DNA of 64,000 nt from Yuukianura sp. NJ FZ-2021 (Eukaryota). Made by a program: the position numbers and the translations under genes. The notes beneath the pieces were generated by a model. That model saw only the letters and a list, made by a program, of their open reading frames with translations, was not told where the DNA came from and ran no database searches. Below, in pieces: positions 3,001 to 12,500 of this stretch; positions within the stretch are counted from its first letter, which is position 1; the number at the start of each line of letters is the position of its first letter. The stretch is from assembly GCA_046563655.1 (NCBI GenBank), contig CM102283.1:5952001-6016000 (forward strand), given 5' to 3'.

Positions 3001-3342
3001 GAACTGGACAAGGTCATGATGTCACATTCGGAGTTTCTAGCCAGGCAAGAAGGAACTGCCCCACCGAAAGACAGTTCATTTGATTCTTGGATCTACGTAG
3101 ACCAGAAACTTCAACTCCCACCTACTGATACACCACCGTTGACCCCGGAAGAAAGCGAGGTCACGCTGAAACAGAGTGGCAACGACTCGGATTTACCCGG
3201 AAACGGAGGCAGCGGAGTCGTTTTTTCTACAACAATGACCATTCCGGTCAACAATTCTGCTGAATCGGATGGAAAACGTTTTGCTAAAATTGAGTCTCCG
3301 CAGATTCAGCTGCCAAATTTGGAACCATCTACCAAAAGTTAA
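1..3342 (+). CDS. PDZ-domain protein (periaxin/AHNAK-type PDZ) with long disordered S/P/K/E-rich tail; 5' end outside window
   Basis: Frame-consistent exons <1-101, 229-302, 616-3342 (GT-AG). PDZ motif GLGFTLTGGVKPGVFIKEVMQRGPAA...PGDRI...SFDDIVLPDAMAIMGHASPYSIKL resembles the periaxin/AHNAK PDZ. AATAAA at 4416-4421. Confidence 0.8.
499..570. repeat. Degenerate ~24-bp tandem repeat x3 in intron
   Basis: aaaaatggaataaattcaattt / aaaaatggaataaatccaattt / aaaaatgggatgaatttaattt. Confidence 0.7.
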
Positions 3343-4832
3343 ACATGTAAATTGACTTTTCTGTATAATTTAAAGATGCATTTTCCTTTTTCTCGTTTTT
3401 TTTTTCAAATTACTTATTTTTTAGAACGGTTCTTCATTCATAGTAATTCAGTTTCAGGAAATAGAATCTGTACTTTTAACAGTTGAATGAATTTTTTCAT
3501 TCAATTTAGAACAAAAGTCGAGAACAAAGTTGAGGAAAATTGATGAAATAGAAAGGAATTTATTTATTTTAAACGTGACCCGCCTCAGGGTGGCCCATTT
3601 TTTGGTTCTGTGTATTTTTAGTATGAATTTGTGTGTAAAGATTTTAGTTTAGCAACAATTGGACGTTTTCCGTCCCTCTTCAAGTACATTCCGTCCGCTC
3701 TGTGAAACTGTAAATCTTATGTTAGAGGCATTTAAAAATTTTATTTTTTGTTGTATTATTTTAAATATTTTGTGAGAGTTAATTTAAAATTTGACTCTGC
3801 CGAGTGAATGTAAATGAAACAGATTTTTTATAGTTTTAATGATAACACATAAGTAATTTGGTATTATTTTCTTGAAAGTATGAAACTTGTGGTTGCGTCT
3901 GTCGTATATGGAACCCATTTTGTGTAAAGTTTGGAATTGAAAGGCACTTAAGTTTCCCGCGTTAATTTGCTGGGCAAAGTGCAATTTGTGTAAATTGTGT
4001 GGAACTAGTACTATTTTAATTGTTATTCAATTAAATGTAACTAGAACGTTAATTTTTACAGGTACGTAATACATGTAATGTTTAGCAAATCTTCGAAAAA
4101 TGGATTCGAAGTGACGCGTCAAAAACAATCACAAAACGGATTTTGGAAGACACTGTTTGAGTTTACCTCTTTGACAGTCTGTGCCATCATGTCGTTTGTA
4201 AAAAGTATGGTATAAGTACGTAGCTTTATATTAATTTAGTTAAGCTGTTATATTTTGAGAGTTATAGTTTTCTATGGTACGAGTTTTAACTGAAGTTATT
4301 TGCATTTAAACTAAAGCTAACCTTAAAAACACTGTATTTAACTAACTTTATCAATAGCTTATTAAATGATTCGGTTCTGGGCTACAATTCTGTACTTTGA
4401 AACGTTTTTGTTTAAAATAAATTCATCTAATTGGACATTTTCTTTAAAAAAAAAACGTTATAATGTGCGATGTGCACATGCGATAGCGATACGCACGCAG
4501 TAGCGAGGTGCGGTTTTTCCGAAGAGGGCATTGACTGGGTGGTTAAGGGGTTGACTTGCGCGCCACGCCACCTCGGGCGGGGATTAGTCTAGTCATCCAC
4601 ATCCACACTAGAAGAAAGCCAAATGAGAAGAAACGGGAGGAACACAGAATTTTCTATTGGCAGTGTCCGTGTGATTACTGATTGTCGGTTTATTTAACAG
4701 TTTCTTGTATTTCATATTCAAGATAATCTAAAACCATTTAAGTTCTAATAAACTAGTTACTGAAAGCAAGCGAGAGACAGATTTTGTTACTATTTCCTCG
4801 GATTACACAGATTCAAATTCAGACTAAACAAG

Positions 4833-7800
4833 ATGGCGGATCGTAAGTCTTTAAATCAATATTTTCCTTTGTAGTGTTCCTTTGGTAATCAAGTTTTAGA
4901 AGTTACGCATTTGATCATGTTCTTCAAGTGGACCGAACGTTACATTGACGTATAATGTTTGAAATTGATTTTTATTGTTCTTTTAGCGTACGGAGCCAGT
5001 TACAACTCTGGAGGAGGAAGTTATGGTGGCTATGCTGCTGGAGGAGCAGAACCTAGCGCTTACGGGTCAAATGGTTAGTAATTTTACGTTTCTGATTGAA
5101 AACTAACTATTGGAAAGAGTAACTGATGACTAATTCGTGATTCATTGTTTTTTTTTTTTAGGAAGTTCAGGTGGAGGGTGGAACCCTGCTGGCGCTGGAG
5201 GTTACGGAGGTGGTGGAGGTCAAAGCTATGGCGATCCTGGTGTTCCTAGTTATGGTGGAAATTATGGAGCTCCTCCTCCGCCTCAAGGCGGTGGTGGTAA
5301 GTTGGAAAACCTTGGCAGTGTTTTTCTAATATAATGTCTATTTTATCTTATCGATGGTATTAAAAATTCAGGGTATGGAGCTGGTGCAGGTTACGGAGGT
5401 AGTTCTATGAATCAAGGCGGTCCACCATCTTCTGGAGGAAGTTACGGTGACTATTCTGGTGGTGGTGGTGGCGCGTCATATGGATCAGGCGGAGGTGGAC
5501 CCCCGTATGGAGGATCCTCATATGGAGGAGGCAATAACTCCTATGGAGGCGGTGGAGGTGGAGGAGGTTATGGTGGTAAGTCAGCAGTTAGCAGTTGTTC
5601 AACGTCAACCTTAAACTTTATTCAACATTTAGAATATCTGTTTTAATATTAGGTGGAGGTTCTGGTGGATACGGTGGTGGTGGCAGAGGTGGATACAAGT
5701 AAGTGAATTCTAAACTTCATTATCATTTATATCGTCAGTATTTATGTGTAATACCTTGCAATTGCCATCTTGCGCCGCGTATTCGAGATTGACCGGTGTT
5801 AAATTCTGGAATGTTGACTAGTTGACGAATGCACAAGCGCAATTTCTGTAGTGATAAACCATAAAGAAAGCGAAGAATCCCTAATCCCTGATAGTTTTCT
5901 CGGATAGAAATATTTTGATCTTCTGGCGTGATTTTGGGAGTTGCAATGATTAGAGAACGAAAACGACATTGTGCAGACAAGAAGTGAGTAAATACTAAAA
6001 GCGTTCAATACAACAATACAAATTATGGGCAGGGTTGCCATTTGCTAAAGCATGAAGAGTCCTTTGAGTGTACTTAAATATTTGAATTATATGGTGAAAA
6101 GTCAAAATGGTTTTAGAACTGGTTCAGTAGACTAGAGGGTTAAGTGAATTCCAGTGTCCTGTCCTGCCGGAAAGTTGTCGCACAATTTCCTTTTCTTTTT
6201 CTATCATGGAAAACGTGGAGTTAGGTGTAGGTAGCCAATTTAAAAAAAATGACAAATGGAACTTGAAGTAACTTGAATTACTTTTTTGAGAGATGTCACA
6301 TTATCGAAAATAATTTATCAGTGAACAATTCTGAAATCGATTCAAACACAAGCGAAACTAGAAGAGTTGGAAAAAAAAATGTTGTGTTACTTCGTATAAA
6401 CACACTCAAAGTTACACTCAAACATTCGTAGTTGTTTGTTGCAATTGTTATGCTCGCAAAAGTGTTCCTTGAAAGCCCAATATTAACTCAAAACATTCAC
6501 TGGTATACGTTCGCTGCGTGGCTATTTAGCCTAACGTTATACGTAGTATGCGTACCATTTGGTATTACTTACTAAATACTTAGACAAAATTGAGCCAAGC
6601 GCGGCCTAGGAATCCTTACATGCGCACGTGAAAAAGTGTTACTGGTAAAACGTGCTTGTGCCTTGCTGGCCCGGGCGATTTTCAACACAGGTATTAGTGG
6701 CGAGTACTTACGGTGGTAAATATTGTGGTAAAAAGTAGTAGTGTGTGGTTTGGAATGAAATTTAATGTTATATTGAGGTCTGAACTAAACATTCCGTTGA
6801 GTTACACTTCCACAGGAATCAAAGATGGTTTGAGTAAACGAAATGATGGGGAGCAGGGTGTAGTCTACAAAGATGATGGTTGAGGTCTCGTGGTGTTTAA
6901 CACCTCTACGAGTCCTCGAGGTCACTTGTGACCTGAATCAACGTTCTTCCAATACTCAAGAGTTATTGTGTCTTTGTAGTTCGGGTCCAAAGCCAGCAGG
7001 GTCGTCATACCCTGCCAAAGGTAACAAAACAAATCTCTGTCAGTCTCTGACAACCATTTACAAATCTTAAGTTTAATTAATTCACACTTCTTTTACTTTG
7101 TTGTTCGTTTAAGTGGCAACCAGCGTATATAATATCGCTAAATTTAGCCTCAGTCTCTATCGTCCAATACTTAGATTTAAATGCCTTCCTAACCAACTTT
7201 TTTTTTTTGCGTACATCAGTTTAAAACTTAAGTTTACGGAAAGCTGTAGCTAAGCTGCATCACAAAAGAAGGTTAACTCCGATATTACATAAGAAAAAAA
7301 AGTATCTCGATGTACGAAAATTGAAGGCGTCATTTGTCTTCGTAACAAAACCTAACTCAGAAATTACGAATATATCTAAAGAAGGTACTTAAATAATTTA
7401 AACTTGCCCGGTTAACTATTAATTGGTTGAAAAAAAAATTAAGGGCAGTTGTCATGCGTTTGGTGGTTCGATGCAAGTACAGTATACGAGACTGATGGTT
7501 AGGTCACATCACGCACTATTGAAAAAAGAGTTTCAAGGGTTTACTACTACATGTGATACATAAACATAATGCATTTTATGTATAATACATGTAAGTCCAT
7601 TAGGTCAATCGTATGATTTGAAATTCTACTGAACTGAAGCATGTTTCAGTGAATTGGTTCAGCATTTTTGTAGCGTTCAACCAGGCACTGAAGTTTTTGA
7701 GTTTTTTTTTGTCGGTAGTATTGTTAAGTTTGTTTTGTAAATCGGGTTATTTCTTTTGTCTAAAGTAACAGCAAATGTTACTTATAGCCCTACGCTCGTT

Positions 7801-9194
7801 ACCTTTACGTTTGTGTCTTACGGTTTTTCATGTGTTAGGACACAAAGAGAAAGAATTTGATAGTTTACTTATTAGATGTACTTAATACGACTGTAAGCTC
7901 CACCCTTCGATTTAAGTTTTGGTTTATTCCGAAACATTATAATCTAACACTGTTGTTTTTGTTATTCTACCAACGAATTTTCAGGAGGCTATGGAGGCGG
8001 TGGGTTTGAAGAGAGAGGTGACACTGTGTTCGTAGCAGGACTCCCGCCGACTGCCACGGAACAGGATATTGCGGAATACTTTGGATCCATTGGTATCATC
8101 AAGGTAATACTTTCACTTTCAAAAGTCTACATTGTATATTGAAAATTTAAATATTAATGTGTATATGCTTTTACAGATTGACAAGCGTACAATGAAACCC
8201 AAGATTTGGATGTACAAGGATAAAATGACTGGAAGACCCAAAGGAGAATGCACTGTCACTTACGACGACCCAGATGCTGCCAAGTCAGCCATTAGCTGGT
8301 TTGATCGTAAGCGATCTTTGACTATTTCCTATAGAATTTGATTTAACACTTCTGAAAATGTACCTTAAACTTATGTCCTTGTATTGTGCAGAGAAAGAAT
8401 TTCAAGAAGCCATCATCAAAGTTTCGATTGCCACTCGTGGCAGTTCATTCACCCCAGGAGGCGGTGGTGGTGACCGTGGAGGTTATGGTGGGGGTGGCAT
8501 GGGCCGAGGAGGTGACAGAGGAGGTCGCGGTGGAGGAGACCGCGGCGGTGGTCGTGGTGGGTTTCGTGGAGATTCCGGACCGAAAGATTGTAAGTGTAGA
8601 TTTGGAAGAACTGATTGGTCCTAAGTTGATTTTGGGATTCATTTCATAAGCAGACGGTGGTGGCGGACGTGAAGGAGATTGGATCTGTGCTGACGAGGGA
8701 TGCAAGAATCAGAATTTTGCGTGGAGAATGGAATGCAATCGATGCCGGAAACCCAAGTCAGGTTAGAGTTGAATACTTTCAAAATATTACACTTTCTTGT
8801 ACTTGCCATTCACTTTTACCGTGTTTGATTTCAAATACAGATGATGGAATGGGCGGAGGAGGAGGTGGAGGCGGCGGAGGTTTCCGAGGAGGAAGAGGCG
8901 GTGGTGGAGGAGGATTTCGAGGTAAATAACTTAAAAACAGATTGTAAAGAAAGAAGTAGAATTTTGAATTTTTGTGTTTATCAATTTATAGGAGATAGAG
9001 GAGGTGGACGCGGAGGAGGCAGAGGCGGAGATCGCGGTGGCGGTTTTCGTGGAGGACGTGGGGGTGACCGTGGCGGTCGCGGTGGAGACCGTGGAGGGTT
9101 CAGAGGTGGCAGAGGGGGAGACCGCGGTGGAGGTCGTGGAGGAGTAGGTCCGATGAGAGATGGAAGAGGACCGGAGAGGCCACGCCCTTATTAG
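4833..9194 (+). CDS. caz: FET-family RNA-binding protein (cabeza / FUS-EWS-TAF15 orthologue), ~454 aa
   Basis: Exons 4833-4842, 4987-5073, 5162-5296, 5372-5575, 5653-5698, 6980-7020, 7985-8103, 8177-8306, 8392-8589, 8651-8761, 8841-8921, 8992-9194. G/S/Y low-complexity N-terminus, FET RRM (TVFVAGL...[39 protein letters not shown]), RGG, RanBP2 zinc finger ([24 protein letters not shown]), RGG, C-terminal PY-NLS (RPRPY). Confidence 0.95.
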
Positions 9195-9510
9195 ACACGC
9201 TGATTTTTGTACAAGTTTTGTCCTGAAGATTTCCAGATTTCCTGAGTTAAGCCGTCATCTTGAGATGTTGTTATTATAAAGCAGTTGTCCGCTTATTAAT
9301 ACTTTATAGGCCAATTGTATCTGTGGACTTTATTTATTTATGTTTATTTGGGAGTCTAGCTATTGTATAAACAGTTGCTCTAAAATTTCTATAAGCTTTC
9401 ATAGAGTTAGGGTTGATTAATTTGGAGTATTTGCAAATAAATTGATTTTTACGTTAACTAATTCAATTAAATTAGGTGTAACTTATGACTTTTCATTTTG
9501 ATTAATCTGG

Positions 9511-12500
9511 TTATTGGTCATTGTTTTCCACGTATGCTTCTGGTAGTTCTTCGCTCGTCTGGGTAGCTACATCATCGAACTCGGTGACTGATAGCCTCTC
9601 TTCATCATTTTCAGATTCAGTTGGAATTCCATGAGCTGGAAAATGCTTGTCAGCAGCAGTTTCGTCTTCAGCGTTAGAAAGTGGTGGTGATGCATAGATT
9701 TCTTCTCTGGAAGCATCTACGACTGCGTCGTTGCCTTTGTTCGTCCTCTCTGGTTGACTTACGAGTTCAAATCCGGCGCCTTGTTTGTCCAGCGAAAAGT
9801 CCTCGCTGGATAATTCAGGATAAGTAATTGGCAGTTCGTCTTCATCGGAACCTTTAACTCGTTCTAGCAGAAGTTCGGAATCCGAGGCATCTGATTGGTC
9901 AGTGAACTCCTCAAGCTGGATTCCGTCGGCGGGAGTTTCAACCTCCGAAACGAATTCAAATTCATTCCTAGATTCTGCTTGTGTTTCGCCTTCACGGACT
10001 TCAGATTCAGTGGGAGTTTCAATTTCGGATGAAATTTCGTATTCGTTGCCAGGATACTGAGACGGGGTTGGTTCTTCTGAAACTGATATGTCGTACTCAT
10101 TTGACCTCGCGGGTTGGATTTGACCTTGACTTTCTGCTGAATGTTTGTCAAATGGTGCATAGGAATCATCACCATTGTCATCAGGATAACCGATTTCTAA
10201 TTCTTTCTCGGACCTAAGTTGAACCGATTCAAGTGGAAGTTCTGAGTTGTTAATTTCTGGTGGATCGTTGGACTCCTCAAGCTGAATTCCGTCGGCGGGA
10301 GTTTCAGTCTCCGAAATGACTACAACCTCCTTGACAGATTCTGGAACATACTCATGCTCGATAGGTTCTGGTTCAATTGGTTCGAATTCGGAAACTCGGA
10401 ATTCGTTTTCAGAGGAAGTTGAACGTTGGTCTTCAGGAATTTCGTATTCAGAAGTAGAATATGGCGGATTTTGTTCTTCTGAAACTACTGAACCCTGTTC
10501 TTCATTGACGTTTACAGATTGGGTTTGACCATGAAATTCTTCCACTTCTTTGTCAAATTCAAAGCCTCCACCGGAAGCATCGGAGTAAAGAATTCCTGAT
10601 TCATCGTCGCTGGATGGTTGAGTTGATTCAATTGGACGTTCGGAATCAGTAATTTCTGCTTCATCATTCAATGGTTCAAGCTGAATTTCATCGATAGGCG
10701 TTTCGAACTCCGAAACGATTTTATCCTCCTTGGCAGATTCTGTTAGCGATTCGTCTGGATTAACTTCAGATGCTACTGGAAATTCTGGAACTGAGGAATC
10801 GCTTGGAATGTAGAACTCTTCGTTATCGTCAGGAACTCCTTGCTCGGTTGGAAGTTCGTACGGTTCAGTACTACTTTGGAGTGGTCCTTCCGTGGATTCA
10901 GTGTCGTCTTCTACTATTACTACTTTCTCTGGTTCAGTTTGACTTTGACCTTCAACTTCTGCTGGGTCTTTGTCATATGAAATTTGATCACTGGAAAAAT
11001 CAGGATAAGAAATTGCTGCTTCAGGATCGCTGGAAGGTAGAAATGGTTGCTCAGATTCGGAAAATTCTGTTGGCTCATTGAACTCTTCGACCTCCGAAAC
11101 ATTGACGAATTCTGGAATTCTTTGGTCATCATCGGTTTCAAATTCCGTTGGAAATTCTGGAACTGAGAAATCGCTTGGACTGTAAGATTCTTCGTCGATG
11201 ACAACTGTATCTTCAGGGACTTCTGCCTCGGAAGGAATTGCTGGGAGGTAAGTTTCTTCTTCTGGAATTATTGCGTCCTCGTCCTCGGAATTTTCAACTC
11301 GGGTAGGACCTTCAAATTCTGCTTCGTCTTTGTCCAACTGAACTTCCCCTCCGGAAGCTTCAGTGTAAGCAGTAGCTGGTTCATCATCATTGGAAGGTAG
11401 AGCAGGTTGGAATGGAAGTTCGGAATCAGAAGTTTCTGCTCGGTCATAGACTTCCTCAAGCTGAATTTCATCGGCGGGAGTTTCAATTTCCGAAACGACT
11501 TCAAACTCCCTGACGGTTTCTGTCATTTTCTCGTCTTCATCAGGATAACCACTTGCTAATTCATCGTCTCCGGAACGTTCAGTTGATTCAAGCAGTAGTT
11601 CGCCATCAGAGTCTGGAATTTGAATAGATGATTTAATTCCTCAAGCTCTGAAATTACTTTAAACTTTTTAACACATTCTGCGGTAAACACTCACCCTCAT
11701 TGGCTTCTGCTTCCATTGGAAATTCTGGAACTGGGAAATCGTCTGGACTCTGGAACTCTTTGTTAGCGACAGTACTCTCGTGCTCTGAAAGAATTTCGAA
11801 TTCAGTACTGCTAGAATGTGGTGGAACGTAGATTGCTTCTTCTGGAACTACAACTTCGTCTTCGTTATTCTCCGATCTTGTTTCGGCTTCAATTTCAAAT
11901 TCGGGTTTTTTGTCAGTCAAAAAGTCCTCCCGGGAACCATCCGGATAGCCAATTGCTGCACCGTCTTCGCCGGAAGATTGAACTGCTTCAAATGGAGGTT
12001 CTGAATCGGATATTTCGGCTGGGTCATTGAACTCCTCGACTTCGGAAACGACTTGAAACTCGTTGGCAGATTCTGGCAGAGTTCCGCCATCATCGGTTTC
12101 ATATTCCGTGGGAAATTCTGGAACTGAGAAATCGTTTGAGTTGTTGAATTCCTCTTTCACGTCAACTGGATCTTCAGGAATTGACGAATCGGAAGGAATT
12201 TCCTGGAAGTAGACTTTTTCTTCTGGAGTAATTCTGTCATCTTCCTTTGAATTTTCAAATTGAGCTTGACTTTCAAATTCTGCTGCGCCTTTGTCAAACT
12301 CAACGTCTCCACTGGGAACGTCAGCATAAACAATTGGAGGTCCATCATCGCTGGCAGCTAGCGTAGGTTCAAGTGCAATATCGGGGTCATAAATTTCTGC
12401 TGGGTCATAGACGTCCTCAAGCTTGGTTGGATCGGCAGGAGTTTCGACTGAATCTGAGATTTCGGTTGGGTCATTGAACTCTTCGACCTCCGAAATGACT

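Follow-up and report, generated by a model that had tools for sequence, protein, structure and literature searches.

A frame-restoring 41-nt microexon before the RRM exon of a springtail cabeza gene, a candidate dosage cassette of the FUS exon 7 type

The cabeza gene and its microexon

A gene of the cabeza/FUS/TAF15 family lies at 4833-9194 on the plus strand of the analysed stretch of DNA, 64,000 nt of contig CM102283.1 from the springtail Yuukianura sp. NJ FZ-2021, hereafter called the window. It has 12 coding exons with boundaries assigned by GT/AG, and one of them is a microexon of 41 nt in front of the exon in which the RNA recognition motif (RRM) begins. This microexon, and its possible role in the control of cabeza (Caz) dosage, are the subject of the present analysis.

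With the microexon included, the open reading frame (ORF) runs from the ATG at 4833 to the stop codon TAG at 9192-9194, 1362 nt in all, and is open over 453 aa. The predicted protein carries, in this order, a Gly/Ser/Tyr-rich N-terminus, the RRM, an RGG region, a RanBP2-type zinc finger, a second RGG region and a C-terminus that ends in ...GPERPRPY; the RGG/DRGG repeats that flank the zinc finger were read directly from the translation. Among the exon translations, exon 7 and exon 8 matched the Pfam profile RRM_1 (24.1 and 22.9 bits, cutoff 20.7) and exon 10 matched Zn_ribbon_RanBP (36.4 bits, cutoff 27). An RRM followed by a RanBP2-type zinc finger, a low-complexity N-terminus, RGG repeats, a PY-type tail and homologues named cabeza or FUS place the gene in the FET family, whose domain list was taken from a review (PMC5100351). 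The nearest named protein was RNA-binding protein cabeza isoform X6 of Folsomia candida, with 81% identity over exon 8, and the best named homologues were the cabeza proteins of Folsomia, Timema, Schistocerca and others.

The region around the microexon is composed as follows (a slash marks an exon border):

5653-5698, plus strand: exon 5, 46 nt, ending in phase 2 (two bases carried over), ...GGATACAA/gtaagt
5699-6979, plus strand: intron 5, 1281 nt
6980-7020, plus strand: microexon, 41 nt, entered in phase 2 and left in phase 1, ctttgtag/ ... /gtaaca
7021-7984, plus strand: intron 6, 964 nt
7985-8103, plus strand: exon 7, the RRM-start exon, 119 nt, starting in phase 1 (one base needed), ttttcag/GAGGCTATGG
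8007-8009, plus strand: TGA stop of the skipped form in the main frame, ninth codon counted from the junction codon, with the exon 7/8 junction 94 nt further downstream

Direct joining of exon 5 to exon 7 yields AAG AGG CTA TGG AGG CGG TGG GTT TGA (K R L W R R W V stop), and the translation of the skipped form ends in ...GGYKRLWRRWV. Further exon junctions lie downstream of this TGA, a geometry that would fit nonsense-mediated decay (NMD). Together with the split codons at its borders, the 41-nt exon contributes 15 residues, N first and G last. A preliminary description of the locus had claimed the phase 2 end at 5698, the phase 1 start at 7985, the TGA at 8007-8009 on direct joining and the rescue of the frame by 6980-7020. 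All of this was reproduced from the sequence, and homologues of the exon were found in three related contigs (L002, L003 and L005, see below). Its claim that long introns occur only beside the microexon holds as well: introns 5 and 6 measure 1281 and 964 nt, whereas the nine remaining introns of the gene span 64-144 nt and are typically about 75 nt long. The position was described as equivalent to that of the FUS cassette, and this is borne out by exon 7, in which residues 14-39 form the start of the RRM with the RNP2 motif VFVAGL and match RRM_1 profile positions 1-26.

Frame restoration alone is weak support for 6980-7020 as an exon. Within introns 5 and 6, 127 segments of the type AG..GT restore the frame without a stop codon, and direct splicing to 7985 would also be in frame from six weak GT sites within exon 5, whose last exonic bases range from 5658 to 5688. 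The frame could thus be bridged in another way, for instance by the 50-nt segment 6778-6827 or by a weak exon 5 donor spliced directly to 7985, and 6980-7020 would then be no exon. A crude position weight matrix (PWM) even ranked 6778-6827 first and 6980-7020 fourth by summed site score, although the matrix was built from 10 splice sites of this one gene, a sample too small to decide.

The segment 6980-7020 amounts to more than a chance bridge because an orthologous segment occurs in the mRNA and genomic contigs of relatives. These came from a scan of metagenome contigs in which an exon 8 alignment served as query and which returned 80 loci, and the exons of the relatives share 69-79% nucleotide identity with the window. 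L002 is a spliced mRNA contig in which exons 7 and 8 abut and a single ORF continues through to the C-terminus. It reads ...RGGGGYNSGSKQGSYPSKGYGSSG...CVFVSGL, and its 35-nt segment aligns with the 41 nt of the window, being two codons shorter. The genomic contig L003 starts with tttgtag/CTCCGGGTCGAAAGGGTCTTCTTACCCTTCCAAAG/gtaacaaa, so that its microexon homologue occupies positions 8-42 (35 nt), followed by an intron of 871 nt and the RRM exon. In the genomic contig L005 (9.3 kb), exon 5 ends with ...GGATATAA/gtaagt at 1535; an intron of 1621 nt, a 35-nt microexon at 3157-3191 (ttttag/...AAAG/gtaaca), an intron of 1005 nt and the RRM exon at 4197-4324 follow. Inclusion of the L005 microexon reads NAPSKQGSYPSKGYGGGGG...TDTVFVSGL, and its skipping leads to a TGA at the 8th codon. 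The arrangement of long introns around the microexon, a feature of the FUS-type cassette, is retained in the window, L005 and L003.

Since L002, L003 and L005 all carry the homologue of 6980-7020, the other bridging segments are excluded. In the L002 mRNA the Gly-rich part is linked to the RRM exon by this homologue alone, the microexon with its splice sites is the sole conserved island of the interval in L003 and L005, and the peptide encoded by 6778-6827 is unlike the neighbouring low-complexity sequence. On these comparisons a different bridge appears extremely unlikely and close to refuted, and 6980-7020 is almost certainly a real and frame-essential exon.

The donor of the microexon is GTAACA in all three genomic sequences (window, L003 and L005). 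Its C at position +5 is thus common to the three, whereas 8 of the 10 remaining donors in the window gene have G at +5. A weak donor conserved on an exon of 35-41 nt fits a regulated exon, as judged from these sequences, without proving one.

In the termite-like genomic contigs L009 and L016, some 7.5 kb separate the Gly-rich exons, at about 990-1280, from the RRM exon at about 8800. To judge from these contigs, a long interval before the RRM exon is not confined to springtails. The two are 94% identical throughout and too close to reveal conserved islands.

Skipped forms in other animals

The cabeza models X5 and X6 of F. candida (XP_035706573.1 and XP_021952650.2; P0018 and P0001 in our set) begin with a Val/Ala/Glu-rich stretch, which results from reading the Gly-rich region in a different frame. 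Both return to the normal frame at ...R/GYGSGG, a junction of the exon 5/exon 7 type in which the Gly-rich exons are joined to the RRM exon at ...R/GYG. The skipped mRNA of the window would read ...VDTR/GYGGGG in its alternative frame; the F. candida junction therefore matches the skip junction predicted for the window, with the difference that X5 and X6 are computational models only. No F. candida inclusion isoform and no springtail inclusion-form protein was among the matches of three protein searches.

The alternative frame of the window opens with an ATG whose position was read by hand:

5480-5482, plus strand: alternative ATG in exon 4, start of a 326-aa ORF on the skipped mRNA

In this ORF a Val/Glu-rich N-terminus precedes the RRM, the zinc finger and the C-terminal nuclear-import tail in their usual form. 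Skipping might accordingly serve to switch isoforms instead of initiating decay, the skipped mRNA being translated from the ATG at 5480 into a 326-aa product comparable to isoform b of the worm homologue fust-1. Such a reading would agree with the annotation of F. candida X5, X6 and many other models, and with the worm isoform b, which is expressed and lacks the activity of isoform a (Cao 2021, bioRxiv 10.1101/2021.03.22.436400; Genetics 2021). Against it, leaky scanning would be needed because the main ATG precedes the one at 5480, a stop interrupts the alternative frame 71 codons before the junction, and open alternative frames are to be expected as a by-product of GGN-rich repeats, so that the open frame is not evidence in itself. 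A switch of isoforms in place of decay is decidedly improbable.

Frame-shifted N-termini of this kind recur across the FET family. A collection of 137 FET proteins was inspected, from which 56 were set aside, 36 with too little upstream sequence and 20 without an RNP2 motif. Among the 81 assessable models, 34 carried the signature of a Val/Ala/Glu/Met-rich N-terminus in the shifted frame, and several more were near the threshold. The taxa with the signature comprise insects, ticks, a spider, Daphnia, molluscs, cnidarians and frogs; in the frog FUS models of the frame-shifted type the frame switches about 20 residues before the RNP2 motif. By their sequences, the 34 models indicate a frame-shifting short exon at this place even if some of them are mispredicted. 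For annotation, Val/Ala/Glu-rich cabeza or FUS models are most simply explained as a skipped form or a missed microexon, and they are worth flagging.

Transcript contigs of two other animals lack a segment at this position. The contig L062 is without 53 nt that are present in L074, L075, L077 and L078, to which it is 98-99% identical; the gap follows L062 position 410, the missing segment lies just before ...GNNKFKDGMIIQEDT, and the long ORF of L062 is then in the alternative frame. This group matches the cabeza-like isoform X2 of Clytia hemisphaerica (99% over the RRM segment), and L062 is, on sequence grounds, an assembled skip isoform of a hydrozoan-like organism. Similarly, L054 is without 56 nt (491-546 of L024) before the RRM exon, the two contigs being 95.7% identical, and 14 codons on, its main frame meets a stop. 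Among named proteins, L024 comes closest to chelicerate ones.

Two models from the protein searches stood apart. The top match of one search, the Centruroides sculpturatus model P0138, owed its high score only to a duplicated RRM segment and was rejected. The Lutzomyia longipalpis model P0012 contains about 400 unrelated residues between the Gly-rich part and the RRM, an insert which by eye resembles a mobile-element ORF from a long intron.

A proposed dosage switch and the evidence weighed

Taken together, F. candida X5 and X6, the 34 of 81 FET models and the skip transcripts of two animals make a switch role of the microexon likely, though only indirectly for this species. Skipping of the microexon or retention of its introns is probably regulated in springtails. 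It is also rather likely that the microexon acts as a dosage switch of cabeza and that it corresponds, in hexapods, to exon 7 of human FUS and exon 5 of worm fust-1. We see the balance as even on whether Caz itself would drive skipping or retention as a negative feedback. In the proposed sequence of events, a high nuclear level of Caz would cause the microexon to be skipped or its flanking introns to be retained. The exon would be susceptible by virtue of its non-consensus donor (GTAACA, C at +5) between two introns of about 1 kb in a gene of otherwise ~75-nt introns. The main frame of the skipped mRNA would then end at 8007-8009, and the message would be unproductive, being either degraded by NMD or translated, from the ATG at 5480 in the alternative frame, only into a protein with a changed N-terminus. 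The output of Caz would drop as a consequence. That the exon is skipped in this species, that Caz governs the skipping and what becomes of the resulting mRNA are all inferred.

Several findings weigh against a regulated switch, in addition to the expected openness of the alternative frame. Springtail-like mRNA was represented by a single contig, L002 (1 of 1), and it includes the microexon. Many of the alternative-frame models could be prediction artefacts of a missed microexon. The interiors of the introns, compared between the window and L005 or L003 by local alignment, scored within the range of dinucleotide shuffles in all four homologous pairs, although this test had low power given the distance of the relatives. 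A word-7 BLAST of the interval against the relatives matched only the exon and the edges; conservation ends about 40 nt from the splice sites, and about 40 nt beside the exon 7 acceptor align with L001. Intron conservation, which the preliminary description had proposed to check across hexapods, did not materialize in these relatives, and of its comparison with the long conserved introns of FUS the length stands and the sequence conservation does not. The motifs GGTG and GTGGT were not enriched over shuffles in either whole intron. Finally, a stable fold around the microexon of the window had no stable counterpart in L005 (see below), and a study in mouse and human reported no exon 7 skipping in FUS.

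Most of these points would agree with a constitutive microexon, always included, between introns that are long for historical reasons and without any regulation. The frame-shifted models would then be annotation errors, and several of them do come from ab initio pipelines ('hypothetical protein' entries). Such a reading has to contend with the transcripts that are without exactly 53 and 56 nt beside inclusion forms in two other animals, with the human and worm cassettes, which are regulated by experiment, with the weak donor kept in three of three genomic sequences, and with the persistence of long introns here alone, in the window, L005 and L003, where the other introns have stayed short. We consider a constitutive microexon rather unlikely.

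Alternatively, introns 5 and/or 6 could be retained, with nuclear detention of the transcript, instead of the microexon being skipped. Dose-dependent retention of two FUS introns without exon 7 skipping is described by Humphrey 2020 (PMC7337901) for its mouse and human data, and intron 6/7 retention with nuclear detention is favoured there. In the window, retention would meet in-frame stops early, at the first codon of intron 5 and at the 16th codon into intron 6, and two introns of about 1 kb among introns of ~75 nt would splice slowest. The lack of conservation in the intron sequences speaks against it, as do the Clytia-like and chelicerate-like contigs, which are of the skip type and not of the retention type. 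Retention in place of skipping appears improbable; it is compatible with the proposed dosage switch and not exclusive of it.

Counts of GGT, TGGT, GTGT and TGTG were likewise within those of shuffles for whole introns, and the motif counts neither support nor exclude binding of Caz to its own pre-mRNA. Four copies of GTGGT were noted at 6713-6890 (~180 nt), 90-270 nt upstream of the microexon. This cluster was picked post hoc and is a weak observation; when the last 400 nt of intron 5 were shuffled 300 times, 7 of the shuffles reached its count.

The fold of window 6870-7050 had a free energy of -57.3 kcal/mol (z -3.55), and none of 200 shuffles was as stable; the L005 counterpart gave a z of +0.34. 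A smaller element lies inside the microexon:

6996-7015, plus strand: hairpin GCAGGGU-loop-ACCCUGC, ending 5 nt before the donor

This hairpin was part of the minimum free energy fold of all four microexon sequences, in L002, L003 and L005 as AAGGGU-loop-ACCCUU, with one double change (C-G in the window, A-U in the other three). Its energy was exceptional only in the window, where 9 of 300 shuffles folded as well, and not in L002, L003 and L005.

A search of Rfam over 4500-9500 found no family above threshold. Its match to TMV_UPD-PK3 on the minus strand at 7902-7951 (21.7 bits against a gathering score of 34) was taken as chance. The introns contained no stop-free frame above 89 aa, and their repeats were limited to short two-copy matches, with no copies of the introns elsewhere in the window. 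Downstream of the gene, a long stretch at 9500-10500 contains a repeated unit of about 35 nt (e.g. near 9905-9945 and 10265-10310), which by eye resembles a repetitive coding region of a neighbouring gene.

Origin and comparison with known cassettes

The preliminary description left undecided whether the arrangement is ancient or convergent, and an ancient origin is now favoured. The frame-shifting segments at this position measure 41, 35, 35 and 35 nt in the springtail-like sequences, 53 nt in the Clytia-like and 56 nt in the chelicerate-like transcripts; all are 2 mod 3. The worm fust-1 cassette, 38 nt long, falls into the same class (Cao 2021). In each checkable case the cassette lies directly before the RRM-start exon. 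For four or five independent lineages, a shared frame class would be expected by chance about once in 8 to 16. Common descent is favoured because both the frame class and the position are shared. The same architecture in hydrozoan-like and chelicerate-like transcripts and in the worm argues for an old and general device of FET genes. We give even credence to a single ancient cassette (2 mod 3, phase 2 then 1) in the FET gene of the cnidarian-bilaterian ancestor, kept as a switch either of unproductive splicing or of isoforms. No more and no less do we credit its retention in hydrozoans, nematodes, chelicerates, hexapods and vertebrates, with peptide and intron sequence free to turn over.

If this holds, the regulation of FUS exon 7, relevant to amyotrophic lateral sclerosis (ALS), would by estimate be more than 600 million years old and open to study in arthropods, cabeza included. 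Control of FUS dosage matters for ALS and its mechanism is debated, with exon 7 skipping and NMD on one side and retention of introns 6/7 on the other. In flies, overexpression of FUS in motoneurons lowers cabeza, according to a review (PMC7831090); the papers found give no mechanism for this drop. The springtail microexon between two long introns is a concrete candidate element for the control of cabeza dosage in arthropods. In one literature collection, no paper was found on this cassette in arthropods or uniting the human and worm exons.

The microexon is a further case of a known type of cassette, and its regulation is probable. FUS binds its own exon 7 and introns 6 and 7 and represses exon 7, and the exon 7-skipped mRNA has a stop in exon 8 and is a target of NMD (Zhou 2013, PMC3814325). 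The block of intron 6, exon 7 and intron 7 spans about 3 kb and is conserved in vertebrates, with 77% identity between human and mouse (same source). The springtail microexon resembles FUS exon 7 as a short exon of the same gene family whose loss shifts the frame and brings an early stop in the next exon, and as one located within the RGG/Gly-rich part just before the RRM-start exon. The intron lengths are comparable, with 1453 and 1355 bp flanking the exon in the E7L minigene (introns of ~1-1.5 kb) and 1281 and 964 nt here. The two differ in that the vertebrate introns are conserved in sequence, whereas here, among the relatives compared, conservation does not reach beyond the exon and some 40 nt next to its splice sites. 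They also differ in that binding, exon repression and NMD were established by experiment for FUS and would be predictions for the springtail. Human FUS exon 7 is 35 nt long, a figure that the searched text of the 2013 study by Zhou does not state.

The worm case, absent from the preliminary description like the intron 6/7 retention of Humphrey 2020, already bridges human and invertebrates. There, FUST-1a promotes omission of the 38-nt exon 5. Translation of the shortened mRNA from a downstream AUG in the +1 frame gives isoform b, in which a Val/Glu-rich N-terminus is followed by the RRM, zinc finger and nuclear localization signal that isoform a also has (Cao 2021). Two differences apply: the dependence on FUST-1a was demonstrated with reporters and mutants, unlike in the springtail, and the skipped product is translated, which its author set against NMD. 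The likeness is nevertheless close. The worm exon shares the frame class of the 41-nt microexon, its skipping moves the Gly-rich region into another frame, and the resulting mRNA can encode a Val/Glu-rich N-terminus joined to RRM and zinc finger, as does the 326-aa ORF of the window.

On a broader scale, the proposed switch resembles autoregulation by unproductive splicing, in which negative feedback acts through an unproductive splice form of a gene's own pre-mRNA. Many autoregulated splicing genes use a poison exon, the inclusion of which is unproductive. The springtail microexon would reverse this logic: its inclusion is productive, and skipping is the proposed unproductive form.

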